Of a stretch of DNA of 32,000 nt, positions 2,860-28,874 are shown one piece after another. The notes below the pieces were generated by a model, which ran no database searches, had not been told where the DNA came from, and saw only the letters and a list, made by a program, of their open reading frames with translations. Origin of the DNA: Candidatus Borrarchaeum yapensis (lineage in GTDB: Archaea; Asgardarchaeota; Sifarchaeia; Borrarchaeales; Borrarchaeaceae); the NCBI GenBank assembly GCA_016840515.1, contig JAEOSF010000036.1, forward strand, positions 3,959-35,958, in the 5' to 3' direction. Every line of letters begins with the position of its first letter. The first letter of the stretch is position 1. The translations under genes and the position numbers were made by a program.

Positions 2860-4929
2860 TTAAGTTATTTTTGAACCTGGACGAAGAGGCTGATCAACCA
2901 TTAGAAGGCCTAAAGCACCTGTTTGCGGATCTTCTGCTGCTAAGAGCATTCCATTAGATTTTAGGCCACGGATTTCTGCCGGTTTAAGATTAACTAGTAC
3001 TATAATCTGTTTATTCACTAATTCTTCTGGTTTATAGTAGCCGATTAGTGATGAGACAATTTGCCGCGTTCCAAGCTCGGCACCTAGATCTACTTCCATG
3101 CGAATTAATTTTTCAGTACCTTCAACATGCTCTGCTACAACAACTTTTCCTACACGCATATCTAATGTTTTGAAGTCATCAAACGTAATGAGTGGAGTGG
3201 GTTCAGAAGGTTCAACTAGTGTTGCTTGTAACGTTTCTTCTTGAGCCTTTATTATTTTGTCATCTATCTTGGCGAACAGGGGTTCAGGGTCTTCTACGAT
3301 TTTATGCCCTGCTGGAAATCCTTCAAGGGCTGCGTCCCAGGTCTGTTCGTGCACAGAATCCTCAAAATTCAGATCTTTCCACAATCTTTCTGCTGCAAAA
3401 GGTAAGTACGGTTCCATAAAAATAGTAAGTGCTCTAACTACTTTTGCACACACACCAAGCGTAGTTTTTGCCTTTTCTGGTGCCTCTTTTATCGCTTTCC
3501 ATGGGGCTTTATCATTAAAGTATTTATTGCACTTATGCGTGAAGTCCATGATGCTTGTTAAACCAGTACGGAGTTCAAAAGACTCTATACTTTTTTCAAT
3601 ATTCTTTTGCAGTTCGCCAAGATGTTCTAAAAACTTGTTATCGGCTTCATCGAGATCATTGATTTCTTGGACTACACTGTCAAAGAAGCGATTGGTAAAA
3701 GTAAGCGTTCTGTGAATGAAATTTCCGAGATCTGAAACAAGTTCATTATTTACTTTTGTTTGATACTCTTTCCATTTGAAGTCTGCATCTTCCAAAAGAT
3801 TAGAGTAACTAATCCAGTAATATCGTAAGGTATCAGGATCAAAGTAATCTAGGAATTCAGTGAGTCCGACGTACCAGCCTCTACCTTTGGACATTTTGCG
3901 TCCTTCAAGGTTTCCATATCCATATGTGGGGATTTTGGTAGGTACTCGATGGCCAGAGCCCATCAGTTCGGTAGGCCAAAAAAGCGCATGATGGTATACT
4001 ATCCCTTTTCCAATGAAGTGAATTAATTCAGTACCTTTTTCCTCTGCAAGATCCTTTAACCAAAATTCTTTCCATTTCAATTCATCTTTCGCCACCTCGA
4101 TTGCCCACTCCATTGTAGAAGTCTTGTAACCAAGAAAAGCGTCAAACCAAACATAAACAACCTTTCCTTCAGCATTATCGAGGGGAACGGGAACACCCCA
4201 GTCTAAATCACGAGTTATACAGATATCTTCCAGGCCAGGTTCCAGATATTGCCCAATTAAATATTCCTTACCGTAAACTGGCAGTACATCTTCCTCTTCT
4301 AGCCATTTTCTTAATTTTTCTGCAAAATTTGAAAGTTTAAGATACCAGTGCTTGCTTACTTCAATTAAGGTCGCTTCGCCGCAGAGCTTACAATGTGGAT
4401 ACAACAGTTCACCCTCATGAAGGGCTCGACCGCAACTGTCACATTCATCTCCTCGTGCGTGATCAAACCCGCAATAAGGGCATTTTCCTTCTACATATCT
4501 ATCTGGTAAGAATCTCTTATCATTAGGACAATAGGGGAGCGAAAGATCCTTCTCATAGATGTGTCCTGCTTCGTATAGCTTCAAAAATACCTCTTGAGTA
4601 GTTTTATAATGTAGTTTTCTACTTGTTCTCGAAAAATTATCAAATGAAATACCTAGGCGTTTGAAATCATTTGCATCCTGCTCATAGTATTTTGTAGCAA
4701 CCTCAATTGGCGTAACGCCCTCTTCTTCAGCCCGTATACTAATAGGTGTACCATGTTCGTCTGTCCCACTTACGAATACTATTTCATGGCCTTTTAATCT
4801 GCAATAACGAACATAGATGTCTCCCGGGATATATGTACTCCGTGCATGAGCTATATGCAACTCAGAATTAGCGTATGGGAGAGCACATGTCACGAGAATC
4901 TTTCTTTTTTTCAATACTACCACCTTCAT
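2860..4929 (-). CDS. metG: methionyl-tRNA synthetase with C-terminal tRNA-binding (Trbp111/EMAP-like) domain
   Basis: HIGH-type motif (PYANSELHIAHA), KMSKGRG (KMSKS), Cys knuckles CPYCG..CDSCG, and a C-terminal OB-fold tail (DMRVGKVV..NLKP..G..S.GM). Confidence 0.96.
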   Translation of the reverse strand: MKVVVLKKRKILVTCALPYANSELHIAHARSTYIPGDIYVRYCRLKGHEIVFVSGTDEHGTPISIRAEEEGVTPIEVATKYYEQDANDFKRLGISFDNFSRTSRKLHYKTTQEVFLKLYEAGHIYEKDLSLPYCPNDKRFLPDRYVEGKCPYCGFDHARGDECDSCGRALHEGELLYPHCKLCGEATLIEVSKHWYLKLSNFAEKLRKWLEEEDVLPVYGKEYLIGQYLEPGLEDICITRDLDWGVPVPLDNAEGKVVYVWFDAFLGYKTSTMEWAIEVAKDELKWKEFWLKDLAEEKGTELIHFIGKGIVYHHALFWPTELMGSGHRVPTKIPTYGYGNLEGRKMSKGRGWYVGLTEFLDYFDPDTLRYYWISYSNLLEDADFKWKEYQTKVNNELVSDLGNFIHRTLTFTNRFFDSVVQEINDLDEADNKFLEHLGELQKNIEKSIESFELRTGLTSIMDFTHKCNKYFNDKAPWKAIKEAPEKAKTTLGVCAKVVRALTIFMEPYLPFAAERLWKDLNFEDSVHEQTWDAALEGFPAGHKIVEDPEPLFAKIDDKIIKAQEETLQATLVEPSEPTPLITFDDFKTLDMRVGKVVVAEHVEGTEKLIRMEVDLGAELGTRQIVSSLIGYYKPEELVNKQIIVLVNLKPAEIRGLKSNGMLLAAEDPQTGALGLLMVDQPLRPGSKIT

Positions 4930-17371: not shown

Positions 17372-17609
17372 TGGTGGGGACGGAGGGATTTTCAGAAAAA
17401 GAGGTTATCTCTATTTTCCTTTGAACCCCCGACATCCGCCAACCCGTGAATCCACGTTTTGTCATCGGGTTTCTCTGGTAAGCACAACTCCAGAAGATCT
17501 TCATCCTTCCGTCAGTTTTTGCTATTTACAAACCTCTGGAGCCCGACGTGCTACATTACCTCATACTAACCTACCAGAGATTAATACGAACTGGCTACAC
17601 TACGTCCCC
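17372..17609 (-). tRNA. tRNA-Trp(CCA) with four putative introns; CCA encoded
   Basis: Acceptor GGGGACG/CGUCCCC and A73. Anticodon arm UCGGG-CUCCAG[65 nt]A-CCCGA. T arm GGGGG-UUCAAA[31 nt]U-CCCUC. D arm GUGU-AGCCAG[36 nt]GUA-GCAC. Variable loop UG[29 nt]GUC. The segment lengths sum exactly to 238 nt, giving a 77-nt mature tRNA. Confidence 0.85.
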
Positions 17610-23673: not shown

Positions 23674-25191
23674 TTAGTTCCCGATCAAATCACGAATGAA
23701 CTGAACTATCAGGCGTACTCCTACTCCTGTAGCCCCTTTTGGGATGTATGCTTTATTTTTATCTGAGCGAGCAGTTCCTGCTATATCTAAATGAATCCAT
23801 GGTGTTCCTTTTTCTACAAATTTTGATAAAAATGCACCAGCTATAATTGCAGCGCCATCACGCCCTCCTACATTTTTTAAATCGGCAAAATCACTCCTTA
23901 AATGAGTAGAATACTCTTTCCATAGGGGTAATTCCCAGACTCGTTCCCCAGTTTTTTCACCTGCTGATGTAATTAGTTTCTTGAAGTTTTCTGCTTCTTT
24001 ATTTGCCATCAAAGCACTAGCATATATACCAAGAGCTATTCTACAAGCCCCAGTAAGTGTTGCTAAATCGATAATTAGTTGAGGAGTATATTTTTTGGCA
24101 TAAGTCAACGCATCTGCTATTACTAGTCTTCCTTCAGCGTCTGTATTAACAATTTCTATAGTTGTACCAGAAAGAGACTTGATTACATCACCTGGTTTTA
24201 TTGCCTTTCCTCCAGGCAAGTTCTCTGTTGCGGGAATGAGGCCGAATAAATGAATTGGCAACTGCAACTGGCTTACTGCACGCATGAGCCCAATGACTGT
24301 GCATCCGCCGGACTTATCGTATTTCATGTTCTCCATGCCTAGTTTCTGTTTTAACGAAAGCCCTCCAGAATCAAAGGTAATAGCTTTACCGACAACGACT
24401 ATAGTATCTAACTTCTCGTTATCTGATGGTTTGTATTCAAGAATGATGAGCTTCGCGGGCTGATCACTTCCTAGCGCTACACTAAGGAAAGCATTCATCC
24501 CTATTTCCCTTGCAGTGGATTCATCTAAAACCTCGCATTTGAGACTAAAAGTTGCTGCAAGTTCTTCAGCTTTTGCAGACAAGTAGGACGGGGTAGCTAT
24601 ATTGGCAGGCATATTAGCTATGTCTCGTGCAAAATTCGTTGACTCTGCGATAATATTGCCTATATTTGCTCCTTCTTGTAGTTCATCAAGAAGTCCCATA
24701 TCACGTTCCAAAAGCAGAATACTTTTTATAGAAGATGAATCACTTTGAGATTCCGTTTTGAGTTCTTTAAACTGGTACAGGCCTAATATACTTCCTTCAA
24801 TCACTGCCTGCGCCGTAGCTTTCGTGGAATTTAGACGAAATTCTTGAAGGGTGGTTACAATTTCTTGGATGTTCAATTCTCGAGTACGAACTGCAGTTTT
24901 TCCACTTACTTGTCTAAGTCTTTCAAGGCTAAGCGAGTCTTTTTTGCCTAAACCCACGAGAAGAATTCGTTTTGTAGGTAGTACATCTTTTGTTCGAAGC
25001 ATATCGATAGTATTCAATTTCCCTGAAAACTCTTTGCTCTCAAGTAAGTCTCTGATAGCGCCATTGAGGGAGGAATCTACTACCTGCAATGATCTACTCG
25101 TAAAATCACTTGTTTCATTCTCAAAAACGCCTAACACAACGATTTCATATTCTTTTTCTTCGATTTTCCCATGTTCGACAAGAATGTCCAT
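23674..25191 (-). CDS. pepA: leucyl aminopeptidase (M17 family)
   Basis: VGKAITFDSGG, the NTDAEGRL signature, DLATLTGA, and the expected length. Confidence 0.95.
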   Translation of the reverse strand: MDILVEHGKIEEKEYEIVVLGVFENETSDFTSRSLQVVDSSLNGAIRDLLESKEFSGKLNTIDMLRTKDVLPTKRILLVGLGKKDSLSLERLRQVSGKTAVRTRELNIQEIVTTLQEFRLNSTKATAQAVIEGSILGLYQFKELKTESQSDSSSIKSILLLERDMGLLDELQEGANIGNIIAESTNFARDIANMPANIATPSYLSAKAEELAATFSLKCEVLDESTAREIGMNAFLSVALGSDQPAKLIILEYKPSDNEKLDTIVVVGKAITFDSGGLSLKQKLGMENMKYDKSGGCTVIGLMRAVSQLQLPIHLFGLIPATENLPGGKAIKPGDVIKSLSGTTIEIVNTDAEGRLVIADALTYAKKYTPQLIIDLATLTGACRIALGIYASALMANKEAENFKKLITSAGEKTGERVWELPLWKEYSTHLRSDFADLKNVGGRDGAAIIAGAFLSKFVEKGTPWIHLDIAGTARSDKNKAYIPKGATGVGVRLIVQFIRDLIGN

Positions 25192-26016: not shown

Positions 26017-26210
26017 CCCCTCTCTTTTTTTCTTTTTTTATTTTGCCTCTAACTTAATTCTAGGTGTTGATTTTCCAAAGTATATTGAGAAAGAGCTGTT
26101 TTCTCCTTATGCAATAAAGAAACATTAGAAAGTTAACTATTGAGAGGGATATTCTTTTATATTGTAGTTACTTATGACGTAATCTAGCTATAATAACTTA
26201 ACATCACCAA

Positions 26211-26435
26211 GCCGGGGTGGCTAAGAGTCGATGCATGAGGAAATTGCCCTCACTACATCGATGAGAAGCCTGGTTATAGCGCCGGACACTCTCCGAGCCG
26301 GTTTCATAGAGATTATCCCAAGAAAGCCCTTTCTTGAGACATCCGGAGAGACGTTACACGTTGAGGTAATGTTCTGAAGGTCGCGGGTTCGAATGGATGA
26401 GCGTAACGCTCTTTCCGAAAAGCCCGCCCCCGGCA
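26211..26435 (+). tRNA. tRNA-Met(CAU), elongator-like (Ile2-CAU not excluded), with five putative introns; no encoded CCA
   Basis: Acceptor GCCGGGG/CCCCGGC and A73. D arm GCUA-[53 nt = 10-nt loop + 43-nt insert]-UAGC. Anticodon arm CCGGA-C[16 nt]UCAUA[32 nt]A-UCCGG gives the loop CUCAUAA. Variable loop AG[31 nt]GUC. T arm GCGGG-UUCGAA[28 nt]G-CCCGC. 225 nt minus 150 nt gives 75 nt, with exact bookkeeping. Confidence 0.75.
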
Positions 26436-26486: not shown

Positions 26487-26657
26487 GCGGGGGTGGCCGA
26501 GCCAGGTCAATTTGCCTATAAGGGTCAGATCATAGGCGCTGGTGTGTGAGGCAACTGCTGCCTTATACTACGAGACTTAAGATCCAGTGACGTAGGTCTA
26601 CGTGGGTTCGAAAAGTTTTGGCGAAAGCCTTTTTCGGAAATCCCATCCCCCGCACCA
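26487..26657 (+). tRNA. tRNA-Leu(UAA), class II, with three putative introns; CCA encoded
   Basis: Acceptor GCGGGGG/CCCCCGC and A73. The D region GGCCGAGCCAGGUCAA[23 nt]AGGCG restores the usual archaeal Leu D arm. Anticodon arm CUGG[32 nt]A-CUUAAGA-UCCAG. Long variable arm UGACGUAGGUCUAC. T arm GUGGG-UUCGAA[28 nt]U-CCCAU. 171 nt minus 83 nt gives 88 nt. Confidence 0.8.
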
Positions 26658-26696: not shown

Positions 26697-26830
26697 GCCC
26701 CGATAGCTCAGCTGGTAGAGCGCGACCTTGGTAAGGTCGAGTTATCTTCGGAACTCCCGAAGATAAGATAAGTCGCGGGTTCGAAGGTTTTAAGAGAAAT
26801 CTCTTTCCGAAACACCCGCTCGGGGCTCCA
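26697..26830 (+). tRNA. tRNA-Thr(GGU) with two putative introns; CCA encoded
   Basis: GCCCCGA UA GCUC AGCUGGUA GAGC G CGACC UUGGUAA GGUCG AG[30 nt]GUC GCGGG UUCGAA[28 nt]A CCCGC UCGGGGC U CCA. 134 nt minus 58 nt gives 76 nt. Confidence 0.87.
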
Positions 26831-26939
26831 TTTCCATAATTTTTCACAATCTGTTGATAGAATATTGCGTACTCAACTCTACAGATTCACTAGTATCTGC
26901 ATTTAAAGTAATTAGAATTCAAAAAAGTAAATTAAGGGA

Positions 26940-28064
26940 TTACACAGCAAGATGAAATTCTTCTCTCAACCGCTTTGCTATTGTTTCCACTCTATTCAGT
27001 TTACTTAATCCCCATTGAGTTACTCTGTAGTATTTCTTACGTCCTCTTCGGTAGCGAACGCATTCTGCTAAACCCATTTTGACTAGTCTTCGAAGTGTAC
27101 AAACGATGCAATATTCTTTTAGTTGTGAGAGTCGTCCAAGTTCTTTAATATAGTTTTCTCCTTCTGCTAACGCCTCTAATATCTTTTTCTCGGTTATCCT
27201 GTTATTGTTCACTCGCATCATATCTACTGGATACATTGCTGATAACTCGATTTCTCCTCGGATTAACTTTACCCTCTCTACTAAATTCGTCTTGCGAGGC
27301 ATCAATCCAAATTTTTCATACAGCACTACTTTCGTCAAGTGCTTCGGATTATTGAATCCTATGCTGTTCATCCATCTCTCATAATTCTTGTCTCCATTTA
27401 TCGCCAGAATTAACGTCCCATCGTCACTTTCCCACAACCTCTTAGGAATGACAAACCCTAATCGCCTCAACTGCTCCTGCAACTGTCTCATTAAAGGCTC
27501 ACTAATTGAACTATAGCTCAGAACTGGGTAGGTATGCGCTAATCCGTCTTTACTCTTAAAACTTAGACTTCCATCTCCATCGAATAGTCCTCGCATTAAT
27601 ATACGGAGAATTCTCAGATTTTGTAAAAAATATCTCGGGATTGTAATTGTCTTTTTTTTTCCATAGGGCAGCCCTAGTACTTTATTTTTGAATAATACCA
27701 GCTGTTTAGACTTTTTTTCTACGATAATTGTCCGCTCGCCTCTTACTCCTCTGAAGTAGATTCGTGAAGTGCCTCATAATTGTTTCAATAACGGCGCAAA
27801 GTGAAATATGTAATAGGGAAAATCATCTATGGCATGACCGTGATATTGTACCTTCTTGCTATTGCCTTCATAATTACCCATATGTCCATCACTAATATGT
27901 ATCCCAACATTTTCAGCGAGCTGCTCTGTCACCTCTTCAGGTAACTTCACTGGATGGTAAATTCTGCTTCCTCCAAAGTCTAACTCCCGAGTTGGCAGCG
28001 GAATTCTGCACCTCTGTTCAACTTCTTCTAACTTCTGAGCTCGATTTACCATATTATTCCTCAC
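26940..28064 (-). pseudogene. free-standing double-motif LAGLIDADG homing-endonuclease-like gene with C-terminal winged-helix domain, interrupted by one in-frame TGA (27774-27776)
   Basis: ORFs 27774..28064 and 26940..27596 are in the same frame (27776-27596=180). I translated the 59 intervening codons by hand and found no other stop. Joined length is 374 codons. The motifs VGIHISDGHMG and LFDGDGSLSF lie about 100 aa apart, as in monomeric LAGLIDADG enzymes. The C-terminal LRRLVKMGL..YYRVT looks like a wHTH. Confidence 0.72.
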
Positions 28065-28511
28065 TATCTCGCTTTTCTTGATAAGGGTTTCATAGCGTTC
28101 ATAAGAATTTTAAAATTTGAAATAAGTCTCCTTAGATCTATATATTTTCAATAAAATTTAAGGATATTCATCATTTTTGCCGTTATTCTTATTAAATTTA
28201 CAGAATGTTCATTAGAATTGACAAGAAGTTTCTTAGAAATGACAAAAGGTTCTACTATTTTTGTTAAGGTTACACTCAATCTTGATAGAAAATTCATCGA
28301 ATGATAGGAAAACTACTACAAATTTCGAACTGGTTCCTTCTTTCAAATGTCTAACAAATCAGTTGAATTTTCCCATAATTACTTAGAACAATGATAGAAT
28401 TGGTCAGATAATGAAATAACCGCCTGCAATTGTTATTGCGAATATTATTCCATTTATAAACAAATTAAAATTTCAACTAAGTTCTTTCAATAATGATTGA
28501 GCACCGCAACT

Positions 28512-28537
28512 AATCCGCGATCCTTATATAATTAGAT
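28512..28537 (+). repeat. 26-nt direct repeat copy 1 (AATCCGCGATCCTTATATAATTAGAT), TATA-box-like core
   Basis: 25/26 identical to copy 2, which lies 113 nt downstream. The TTATATAA core resembles an archaeal TATA box. Degenerate similarity extends about 30 nt upstream of both copies. Confidence 0.8.
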
Positions 28538-28583
28538 TCGAAGGTCTGAGTAATTGCTCTGTCCGAAATACCCATCTGGGGCT
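28537..28583 (+). other. orphan tRNA 3' fragment (T-loop + 59/60-type intron + T-stem 3' strand + acceptor 3' strand + U73)
   Basis: UUCGAA[GGUCUGAGUAAUUGCUCUGUCCGAAAU]A-CCCAU-CUGGGGC-U aligns block for block with the 3' part of tRNA-Thr(GGU). No matching T-stem 5' strand (AUGGG) or acceptor 5' strand (GCCCCAG) occurs upstream. Confidence 0.65.
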
Positions 28584-28624
28584 TTATTCAATTTACTTCA
28601 AGTTTTAATAATTTTCCCCAATTA

Positions 28625-28650
28625 AATCCGCGATCCTTATATAATCAGAT
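28625..28650 (+). repeat. 26-nt direct repeat copy 2 (AATCCGCGATCCTTATATAATCAGAT), TATA-box-like core
   Basis: See copy 1. Lies about 225 nt upstream of the CDS at 28875. Confidence 0.8.
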
Positions 28651-28874
28651 CAGTTGTACTGAGCGGTAACTCCTTCAACGTTTCTTTGAATTATAGGTTA
28701 AATATCTTCAATCAAAAAACTAGATAACAAGTAATTGATGAATAAATGTAGTAGAGGGCGTAAAAATTTAATTATACGAAAAATTGAAGTAGAGGCGCAA
28801 AACTTTATTTATTATAGTTCAGTTATTAAGGTGAATAAAATTAGTGGATTTAAGAACGAAATGTTGGTGATTTT

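Follow-up and report, generated by a model that had tools for sequence, protein, structure and literature searches.

How can a functional transfer RNA (tRNA) be recovered from a gene whose anticodon stands on an exon of five nucleotides (nt), with an intron on either side? The question is raised by a locus of Candidatus Borrarchaeum yapensis, an Asgard archaeon of the order Borrarchaeales, that lies in a stretch of 32,000 nt (positions 3,959 to 35,958 of the forward strand of contig JAEOSF010000036.1, assembly GCA_016840515.1), here called the window and numbered from its first letter. The locus is probably a functional, elongator-type tRNA-Met(CAU) gene with five bulge-helix-bulge (BHB) introns, located at tRNA positions 15/16, 32/33, 37/38, 45/46 and 59/60, which would be spliced singly, in successive rounds. 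The original prediction covered the two anticodon-loop introns, at 32/33 and 37/38 (hereafter introns 1 and 2), and the same gene carries three more. The kind is already known, namely BHB-disrupted archaeal tRNA genes with order-dependent introns, intron-rich Asgard sets among them; new are the lineage, Borrarchaeales, the combination of 32/33 and 37/38 introns with a 5-nt exon and overlapping motifs, and the presence of five introns in one gene. The tRNA-Met gene is an extreme case of the fragmented archaeal tRNA type and reveals no new splicing mechanism.

On the genomic sequence the locus is found neither by ARAGORN nor by Rfam, the latter at its gathering threshold and at E<=10. The 75-nt spliced product, GCCGGGGUGGCUAAGCCUGGUUAUAGCGCCGGACUCAUAAUCCGGAGGUCGCGGGUUCGAAGCCCGCCCCCGGCA, is folded by ARAGORN into a clean tRNA-Met(cat) cloverleaf; it is identical to the product of a related gene (L012), there reached by the removal of only three inserts, and is 92-95% identical to tRNA-Met genes that carry a single intron. 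The acceptor stem is a perfect helix of 7 base pairs (bp), GCCGGGG (26211-26217) with CCCCGGC (26428-26434), and the remaining stems are GCUA/UAGC in the D-arm, CCGGA/UCCGG in the anticodon arm and GCGGG/CCCGC in the T-arm. Every arm or loop of the gene holds an insert. The last nucleotide of the gene is the discriminator A73 (A26435), CCA not being encoded.

Across positions 26282-26346 the anticodon arm reads CCGGAC (26282-26287), ACUCUCCGAGCCGGUU, UCAUA, GAGAUUAUCCCAAGAAAGCCCUUUCUUGAGAC and AUCCGG (26341-26346), exactly as originally reported, and the placing of the anticodon on a 5-nt micro-exon between introns at 32/33 and 37/38 is borne out by the shuffle statistics given below, by conservation among orthologues and by the tRNA-Met that ARAGORN recovers. 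The prediction that both sites fit a BHB held at the exact boundaries in a strict scan, which employed a 4-bp central helix (H), 3-nt bulges and a cut between bulge nucleotides 2 and 3. This geometry agrees with that of classical anticodon introns, in which position 32 pairs with intron position -3. For intron 1, all four pairs of H are formed between C27-G30 and the CCGG at intron nt 11-14, with bulges A31 C32|A and U U|U33 and a 3-bp inner helix in the hairpin CUC-UCC-GAG. For intron 2, the strict motif in the primary transcript has H UUCA/UGAG, of which the 5' strand is composed of intron 1 nt 16 (U), U33, C34 and A35, with bulges U36 A37|G and A C|A38 and a 3-bp inner helix AGA/UCU; a U.U mismatch stands between this central helix and the CCGG/CCGG helix, and the scan scores the outer helix as 0. 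After removal of intron 1, the central helix of intron 2 is an all-Watson-Crick CUCA (C32-A35)/UGAG, stacked on the native 5-bp anticodon stem. The prediction had also held that only removal of both segments gives a legal loop, and this stood in part: by hand enumeration no single excision between the stem strands gives U33, but an excision shifted to 26282-26297 is also legal and is weighed below.

A permissive BHB scan yields dozens of chance motifs per gene, so only tests with fixed boundaries were given weight. Each intron was shuffled 100,000 times with its boundaries held in place, and those shuffles were counted that reached the observed H and inner helix. This was the case in 67 shuffles for intron 1 and, for intron 2, in 29 in the primary transcript and four once intron 1 had been removed. 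The T-loop intron has a strict BHB (H 4/4, inner helix of 3 bp plus a hairpin), matched in 186 of its shuffles, and the features of the variable-loop intron are reached in nine. The D-loop intron has a central helix of two Watson-Crick pairs flanked by G.A and A.G (H 2/4) and an inner helix of 7 bp, a combination matched in 26 of 100,000 shuffles.

Relatives of the locus allow much of this parse to be read from natural alleles. The adjoining M17 peptidase leads to Candidatus Borrarchaeum weybense (JAHQJS010000005.1, L001; 77% amino-acid identity), an Asgard archaeon of the phylum Borrarchaeota that is nearest among the related lineages and shares the gene order of the window. Ten lineages were compared, comprising B. 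weybense, six contigs reached via M17 homologues, a contig identical to the window (L077, JGI 3300027917), and two loci (L015 and L059) from the metagenome pattern scan described below. The same structure is found in independent assemblies from NCBI, JGI, ENA and Logan. Mean pairwise identity is 100% for the exons, 97% for intron 1, 96% for intron 2 and 87% for the D-loop intron, against 77% for the 60 nt upstream and 75% for the downstream spacer. At each of the seven variable positions of the two anticodon-loop introns, the change either falls in a loop or exchanges a pair for a wobble pair: intron 1 changes only at nt 4 (C to U, turning C-G into U.G in the hairpin) and at loop nt 5-6, the hairpin of intron 2 shows A-U replaced by G.U, and the CCGGUU at the 3' end of intron 1 is invariant in 10/10 orthologues. 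Judged from these alignments, the exons and both anticodon-loop introns are under strong purifying selection. The original prediction had looked to orthologues for the presence or absence of each intron, and the answer differs with distance: introns 1 and 2, together with the D-loop intron, are present in 10/10 orthologues, whereas intron 1 is missing from 59 more distant homologues.

The variable-loop and T-loop introns behave differently. The latter is absent to the nucleotide in five of the ten lineages (L001, L011, L012, L013 and L015), which read GCGGGUUCGAAGCCCGC, that is GCGGG-UUCGAAG-CCCGC, the product predicted from the 59/60 BHB. One of these (L012) also lacks the variable-loop intron and reads UCCGG-AGGUC-GCGGG, and in two lineages outside this group (L009 and L059) an unrelated 30-nt intron occupies the site of the window-type variable-loop intron. 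All observed deletions coincide with BHB-predicted junctions. On the evidence of these alleles, both introns have been precisely gained or lost among close relatives, and their precise presence or absence defines the mature sequence. For the variable-loop intron, cuts at 43/44 or 44/45 are equally allowed on sequence alone, and it is from the L012 and L009 alleles that AGGUC follows as the mature variable loop. A 7-nt variable loop, AGAGGUC, the product of a strict-BHB register (26349/26379) with H 4/4, was rejected, as these two alleles allow AGGUC only. The last nucleotide of the D-loop intron is G or A according to lineage, so that only the 15/16 cut keeps the mature D-loop, AGCCUGGUUA, constant. 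An alternative D-loop register (cut after 26226, 41-nt intron, 12-nt D-loop) forms three of four pairs in the window but two of four in the other lineages, and was rejected for this reason and because the mature D-loop would vary. Close relatives with three, four, five or more inserts at exactly defined junctions constitute an unusually clean series for the study of tRNA intron gain and loss, and the series sits in the archaeal lineage closest to eukaryotes.

Two further observations concern the same gene. On the minus strand of L008 (about 455-565), and likewise in L013, some 110 nt at 45/46 of tRNA-Met consist of three tandem units, namely an L009-type intron, a unit of ~48 nt with a CCUCCA...UGGAGG hairpin, and a window-type intron. 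Apparently a single site here has taken up introns in nested or serial arrangement, by which the count in one tRNA gene would rise to six or seven. In addition, an A+T-rich element at 26150-26200 (UUCUUUUAUAUUG, then CUAUAAUAA), 15-55 nt upstream of the tRNA-Met 5' end, is kept in L001, L015 and L059 and is a plausible candidate for an archaeal promoter with TATA and transcription factor B recognition (BRE) elements.

Table 1. Exons and introns of the tRNA-Met(CAU) gene, with modelled BHB motif energies, and other interrupted tRNA genes of the window. hBHBh', helix-bulge-helix-bulge-helix.
Feature	Position	Strand	Description	Motif energy (kcal/mol)
tRNA-Met(CAU) gene, elongator type	26211..26435	+	225 nt, of which 75 nt fall to six exons and 150 nt to five introns; hand parse and ARAGORN	
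Exon 1	26211..26225	+	Acceptor 5' strand GCCGGGG, U8 G9, D-stem 5' strand GCUA, A14 G15; 100% identical in all orthologues	
D-loop intron, 15/16	26226..26268	+	43 nt; relaxed BHB; required for restored D-arm	-12.1
Exon 2	26269..26287	+	Remaining D-loop, D-stem 3' strand, G26, anticodon stem 5' strand CCGGA, C32	
Intron 1, 32/33	26288..26303	+	16 nt, ACUCUCCGAGCCGGUU; A, CUC-UCC-GAG hairpin, CCGG (pairs with 27-30), UU	-6.0
Micro-exon UCAUA	26304..26308	+	U33, anticodon C34 A35 U36, A37; invariant in all orthologues	
Intron 2, canonical 37/38	26309..26340	+	32 nt, GAGAUUAUCCCAAGAAAGCCCUUUCUUGAGAC; internal hairpin AAGAAA/UUUCUU	-5.2 on surrogate stem; -9.9 after intron 1 removal
Exon 4	26341..26348	+	A38, anticodon stem 3' strand UCCGG, A44 G45	
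Variable-loop intron, 45/46	26349..26379	+	31 nt; H CCGG(40-43)/CUGA, 3/4 pairs; inner helix 8 bp	-7.9
Exon 5	26380..26393	+	G46 U47 C48, T-stem 5' strand GCGGG, T-loop UUCGAA	
T-loop intron, 59/60	26394..26421	+	28 nt; textbook hBHBh'; outer helix = 5-bp T-stem, H UUCG/CGAA	-19.2
Exon 6	26422..26435	+	G60, T-stem 3' strand CCCGC, acceptor 3' strand CCCCGGC, A73	
tRNA-Trp(CCA)	17372-17609	-	GGGGACG...CGUCCCC-A-CCA; four inserts (apparent); missed by ARAGORN and Rfam	
tRNA-Leu(UAA)	26487-26657	+	Three inserts; CCA encoded	
tRNA-Thr(GGU)	26697-26830	+	Two inserts; CCA encoded	

The introns would be cut by a broad-specificity (alpha-beta)2 EndA and the exons rejoined by an RtcB-type ligase, one intron per round; introns released in this way are often circularized. 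The 3' part of each ectopic intron would pair with four exon nucleotides located 2 nt upstream of its own 5' cut, the 32/33 intron thereby sequestering 27-30 and the 45/46 intron 40-43. The D-loop, 32/33, variable-loop and T-loop motifs would be mutually compatible in the primary-transcript fold and could be removed in any order; in a nearest-neighbour model the acceptor stem and these four BHBs coexist in one fold of -65.4 kcal/mol. The 5-nt micro-exon would be too short to give intron 2 the same independence, the 37/38 central helix reaching one nucleotide into intron 1. The 3' bulge of intron 1 (U15 U16 U33) overlaps the primary-transcript central helix of intron 2 (U16 U33 C34 A35), and the two motifs are therefore mutually exclusive, so that splicing must be sequential. 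Intron 1, and with it the variable-loop intron, would most likely leave first, after which 27-31 and 39-43 would form the anticodon stem and the canonical 37/38 intron would be presented in a perfect hBHBh' (helix-bulge-helix-bulge-helix) and removed last. The canonical hBHBh' of intron 2 is possible only with intron 1 excised, just the interrupted form being available earlier. An order in which ectopic introns leave first would keep the 5-nt exon covalently attached, and a free pentamer would never be released. At a 5-nt exon length the two motifs must overlap, which makes the gene a natural test of EndA/RtcB reaction order.

Parts of the scheme have precedents. Some archaeal introns lie so close together that the second BHB needs prior removal of the first, as described with tRNAscan-SE 2.0 (PMC8450103). 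In the red alga Cyanidioschyzon merolae, ectopic introns have been found experimentally to leave before the 37/38 intron in a study that also cites nested archaeal introns (Soma et al. 2013, PMC3728597), and the order of processing there tracks BHB free energy (PMC3728597). Asgard archaea are reported to possess an (alpha-beta)2 EndA, in which an L1 loop confers cleavage of relaxed BHBs (PMC5829648). No genes for splicing enzymes are encoded in the window.

A number of observations weigh against this account. The central helices of the D-loop and variable-loop motifs contain just two and three standard pairs, respectively. No BHBs appear in the predicted minimum free energy (MFE) folds, either for the arm (-15.7 kcal/mol) or for the entire transcript (-88 kcal/mol); the BHB conformers are 7-23 kcal/mol less stable in the model, so that their selection must come from bound protein or from folding during transcription. 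Neither anticodon-loop BHB appears in the MFE folds, and the energies accordingly rank conformers weakly; the native anticodon stem dominates predicted folding (P = 0.90). No allele without intron 1, intron 2 or the D-loop intron was found among the ten lineages, and the boundaries of these three introns therefore rest on BHB geometry and the restored tRNA. The relatives provide no covariation either, the CCGG segments never varying, and no substitution among them separates the splicing models. Finally, the order of intron removal is itself an inference.

The distribution of the double intron bears on how the arrangement came about. A scan of metagenomes with the pattern GCGCCGGAC-N(0-30)-TCATA-N(10-40)-TGAGNN-ATCCGGAG matched 63 loci, of which 59 have a canonical 37/38 intron of 16-44 nt without an insert at 32/33; all 59 single-intron homologues read CCGGAC-UCAUAA-UCCGG. 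Two further loci belong to the clade of the window, and the last two (L046 and L052) carry a 24-nt upstream insert, which is an intron that sits at 30/31 in a perfect BHB (H CGCC/GGCG) and leaves a 7-nt micro-exon, ACUCAUA. With introns of 24 and 29 nt and a further one in the T-loop, L046 and L052 agree in intron length with the tRNA-Met(CAT) entries tabulated for Atabeyarchaeia (Supplementary Data 4 of PMC11291895). An anticodon micro-exon between two BHB introns has therefore had at least two origins among Asgard tRNA-Met genes, one of them already in print in that table. The canonical-only state is the common and probably the ancestral one, and the best reading of intron 1 is that of a secondary insertion, made when the gene already held the canonical intron.

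The alternative that survives best concerns the relation between the two anticodon-loop introns. The original prediction had the CCGG of intron 1 form the outer helix with exon UCCGG and thereby supply the helix needed to present intron 2. Stated in full, the CCGGUU of intron 1 would be a selected mimic of exon 27-32 (CCGGAC), pairing with 40-43 and with intron 2 G(-3); the canonical intron would leave first, or the two in either order, and intron 1 would be spliced afterwards from its own BHB. Were this so, one intron would take the place of a stem strand in offering the next intron to the endonuclease, and the overlap of the two BHBs would be a built-in switch that limits splicing to a single intron per step and guards the anticodon exon against loss. 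Taken with the five, possibly up to seven (L008 and L013), introns per gene that turn over among near relatives, this would give Borrarchaeales the most intron-dynamic tRNA system known. The pairing itself does exist (CCGG/CCGG, UUCA/UGAG and AGA/UCU, with bulges UAG and ACA), and at 29 in 100,000 shuffles with fixed boundaries it is better than chance. The invariant CCGGUU includes two bulge U residues not obviously constrained by the intron 1 motif, and broad-specificity EndA tolerates imperfect outer helices (PMC5829648). However, CCGG is self-complementary and is needed for the helix that intron 1 itself forms with 27-30, so its complementarity to 40-43 is automatic and no extra selection is required to explain it. 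The pairing with 40-43 stands, the U.U mismatch breaks the stack between this outer helix and a central helix that begins with a U.G pair, and the proposal that intron 1 is needed is not upheld, the motif of intron 2 being perfect without it. At -5.2 kcal/mol the surrogate form is weaker than the intron 1 motif (-6.0) and than the canonical form after removal of intron 1 (-9.9), and the corresponding whole-transcript fold is 4 kcal/mol worse and leaves the variable-loop intron without 40-43 for its central helix. In the C. merolae case the 37/38 intron goes last (PMC3728597). In L046 and L052, which combine 30/31 and 37/38 introns, the architecture persists without an equivalent strand, and no covariation among the relatives supports the pairing. 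A route through the surrogate strand is possible but is not needed, and we regard it as unlikely; it is simpler to invoke sequential, nested splicing, of which archaeal cases have already been described.

A second and less probable alternative keeps the architecture but changes the identity of the product. Archaeal tRNA-Ile2 likewise has a CAU anticodon and reads Ile codons after agmatidine formation at C34, so the anticodon alone cannot separate the two, and it is all that ARAGORN goes by in naming an isotype. Nevertheless, both GCCGGGG/CCCCGGC as acceptor stem and CCGGA/UCCGG as anticodon arm are what we take to be typical of archaeal elongator tRNA-Met; the same arm is found in the 59 widely distributed single-intron genes, and the Met, Leu(UAA) and Thr(GGU) neighbourhood is also tabulated for the Met-annotated gene of Atabeyarchaeia. 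The assignment as tRNA-Met would therefore follow from resemblance to Met-annotated genes and to archaeal tRNA-Met sequences, and the Ile2 reading is considered improbable. Archaeal initiator tRNAs are characterized by A1:U72 and three G:C pairs at 29-31:39-41. The mature tRNA has G1:C72, A31:U39 and the loop CUCAUAA, and with these two pairs it is not an initiator.

It is very hard to credit a pseudogene here, whether decaying or unprocessed, or a repeat put together by mis-assembly, in place of a working tRNA gene. The standard tRNA finders do make no call at it, and five introns are without precedent in the literature searched, but its exons are 100% identical in ten lineages whose flanks are 75-77% identical, intron substitutions lie in loops or preserve pairs, introns are lost precisely with the mature sequence untouched, the structure recurs in independent assemblies, and three other tRNA genes of the window are built alike. 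Equally remote is a shift of the 16-nt intron to 26282-26297 (26/27), which would make the second CCGG the true stem strand (CCGGU/UCCGG, with a U31.U39 mismatch) and, at equal intron length, give a 7-nt loop UUCAUAA with U33, CAU and A37, but which offers no BHB (H 1/4, inner helix 0; 80,581 of 100,000 shuffles do as well) and a product that differs at 31 and 32 from the 59 single-intron homologues.

Set against known systems, the gene with five BHB introns stands at the edge of a familiar range. Reviews give a maximum of three introns per archaeal tRNA gene (PMC4033280, PMC8450103), and as many as four are tabulated for Atabeyarchaeia (Valentin-Alvarado et al. 2024, PMC11291895, Supplementary Data 4). 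In the open-access literature searched, no report of an archaeal tRNA with four or five introns was found, nor anything relevant to the combination of 32/33 and 37/38 introns, nor a description of a 5-nt anticodon exon, which the primary Thermoproteales papers (RNA 2007, MBE 2008) may hold. Five introns in a 75-nt tRNA and an anticodon exon of 5 nt exceed the published maxima found. The multi-intron tRNAs of Thermoproteales (Sugahara et al. 2007, 2008; Fujishima et al. 2010; via PMC4033280, PMC8450103) are alike in having BHB introns at canonical and ectopic positions, the latter, as here, in the D-loop, anticodon arm, variable loop and T-loop and including relaxed BHB forms; similar introns recur there in different tRNA genes, some neighbouring introns are order-dependent and the EndA is an (alpha-beta)2 enzyme. 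They differ in their published maximum of three introns, against five here, and in belonging to Thermoproteota rather than to Asgard archaea.

A sister architecture is found in Atabeyarchaeia, in which 92-95% of tRNA genes bear introns and more than half of them several (PMC11291895). Their tRNA-Met(CAT) gene, together with L046 and L052, likewise has two introns bracketing an anticodon micro-exon, a T-loop intron at 59/60 and the Met, Leu(UAA) and Thr(GGU) gene neighbourhood. In these genes, however, the upstream intron is 24 nt long, lies at 30/31 and is unrelated in sequence, the exon is the 7-nt ACUCAUA, and the central helix at 37/38 is entirely exonic; the BHBs do not overlap and a surrogate strand is impossible. 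The Atabeyarchaeia micro-exon appears as table rows only and is undiscussed in PMC11291895. The nuclear tRNAs of C. merolae (Soma et al. 2013, PMC3728597) also carry up to three BHB introns (D, 37/38 and T), but they are eukaryotic, their introns fold independently and are neither nested nor overlapping, and a micro-exon is absent. In the tri-split tRNAs of Caldivirga maquilingensis (Fujishima et al. 2009; PMC4033280) a short anticodon piece is again joined via two BHB junctions, but from separate genes and in trans, whereas here the pieces belong to one transcript and the middle one has 5 nt.

The tRNA-Met gene is not the only interrupted tRNA gene of the window. In tRNA-Leu(UAA) the inserts lie in the D-loop, at 30/31 (32 nt, 26543-26574, with a 10-bp inner helix and H 2/4) and in the T-loop at 59/60 (28 nt, 26613-26640). 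Those of tRNA-Thr(GGU) lie at 45/46 (30 nt, 26742-26771, with a 9-bp inner helix and H 3/4) and at 59/60 (28 nt, 26786-26813), and of this gene Rfam picks up no more than the 5' two-thirds (30.6 bits). The apparent inserts of tRNA-Trp(CCA) occupy the D-loop, 37/38 (~70 nt), the variable region and the T-loop at 59/60, the last with H UUCA/UGAA; AUGAAGA and CUGA motifs in its 37/38 intron are reminiscent of the box C/D guide of other archaeal tRNA-Trp introns. The window also holds one uninterrupted tRNA-Thr(UGU) and a 5S ribosomal RNA gene. Standard finders miss four of the five tRNA genes of the window, as a result of which such Asgard genomes look short of essential tRNAs; that disrupted tRNA genes go undetected in Asgard archaea has been suspected before (Kaneta et al. 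2018). The T-loop introns of the adjacent Met, Leu and Thr genes (26394-26421, 26613-26640 and 26786-26813) are all 28 nt long, all lie at 59/60 and share sequence, CUCUUUCCGAAA being common to Met and Thr, which suggests either copying of introns between genes, as in Thermoproteales, or convergent constraint.

Directly after tRNA-Thr(GGU), the window contains a segment of ~1.7 kb (26833-28555) that is absent from B. weybense (L001). It holds an open reading frame (ORF) with a LAGLIDADG_3 domain (26940-27596, minus strand), and at its end are found a 39-nt direct repeat (28512-28550 and 28625-28663) and, at about 28536-28585, a degenerate partial copy of the 3' part of tRNA-Thr, with T-loop, intron and acceptor. 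From these features the segment looks like the footprint of an element integrated into the tRNA-Thr 3' end. A longer homologue of the LAGLIDADG_3 ORF (290 aa, 72% identical) is located just downstream of tRNA-Met in L011, in which the downstream sequence departs from that of the window after 5 nt. On the other side, the tRNA cluster is adjoined by the M17 leucyl aminopeptidase (23674-25191, minus strand), which is 77-88% identical within the Borrarchaeum-like clade. Its best matches outside the clade are 46-52% identical and mostly bacterial (Thermodesulfobacteriota, Nitrospinota, Nitrospirota), and the peptidase may have been acquired horizontally.

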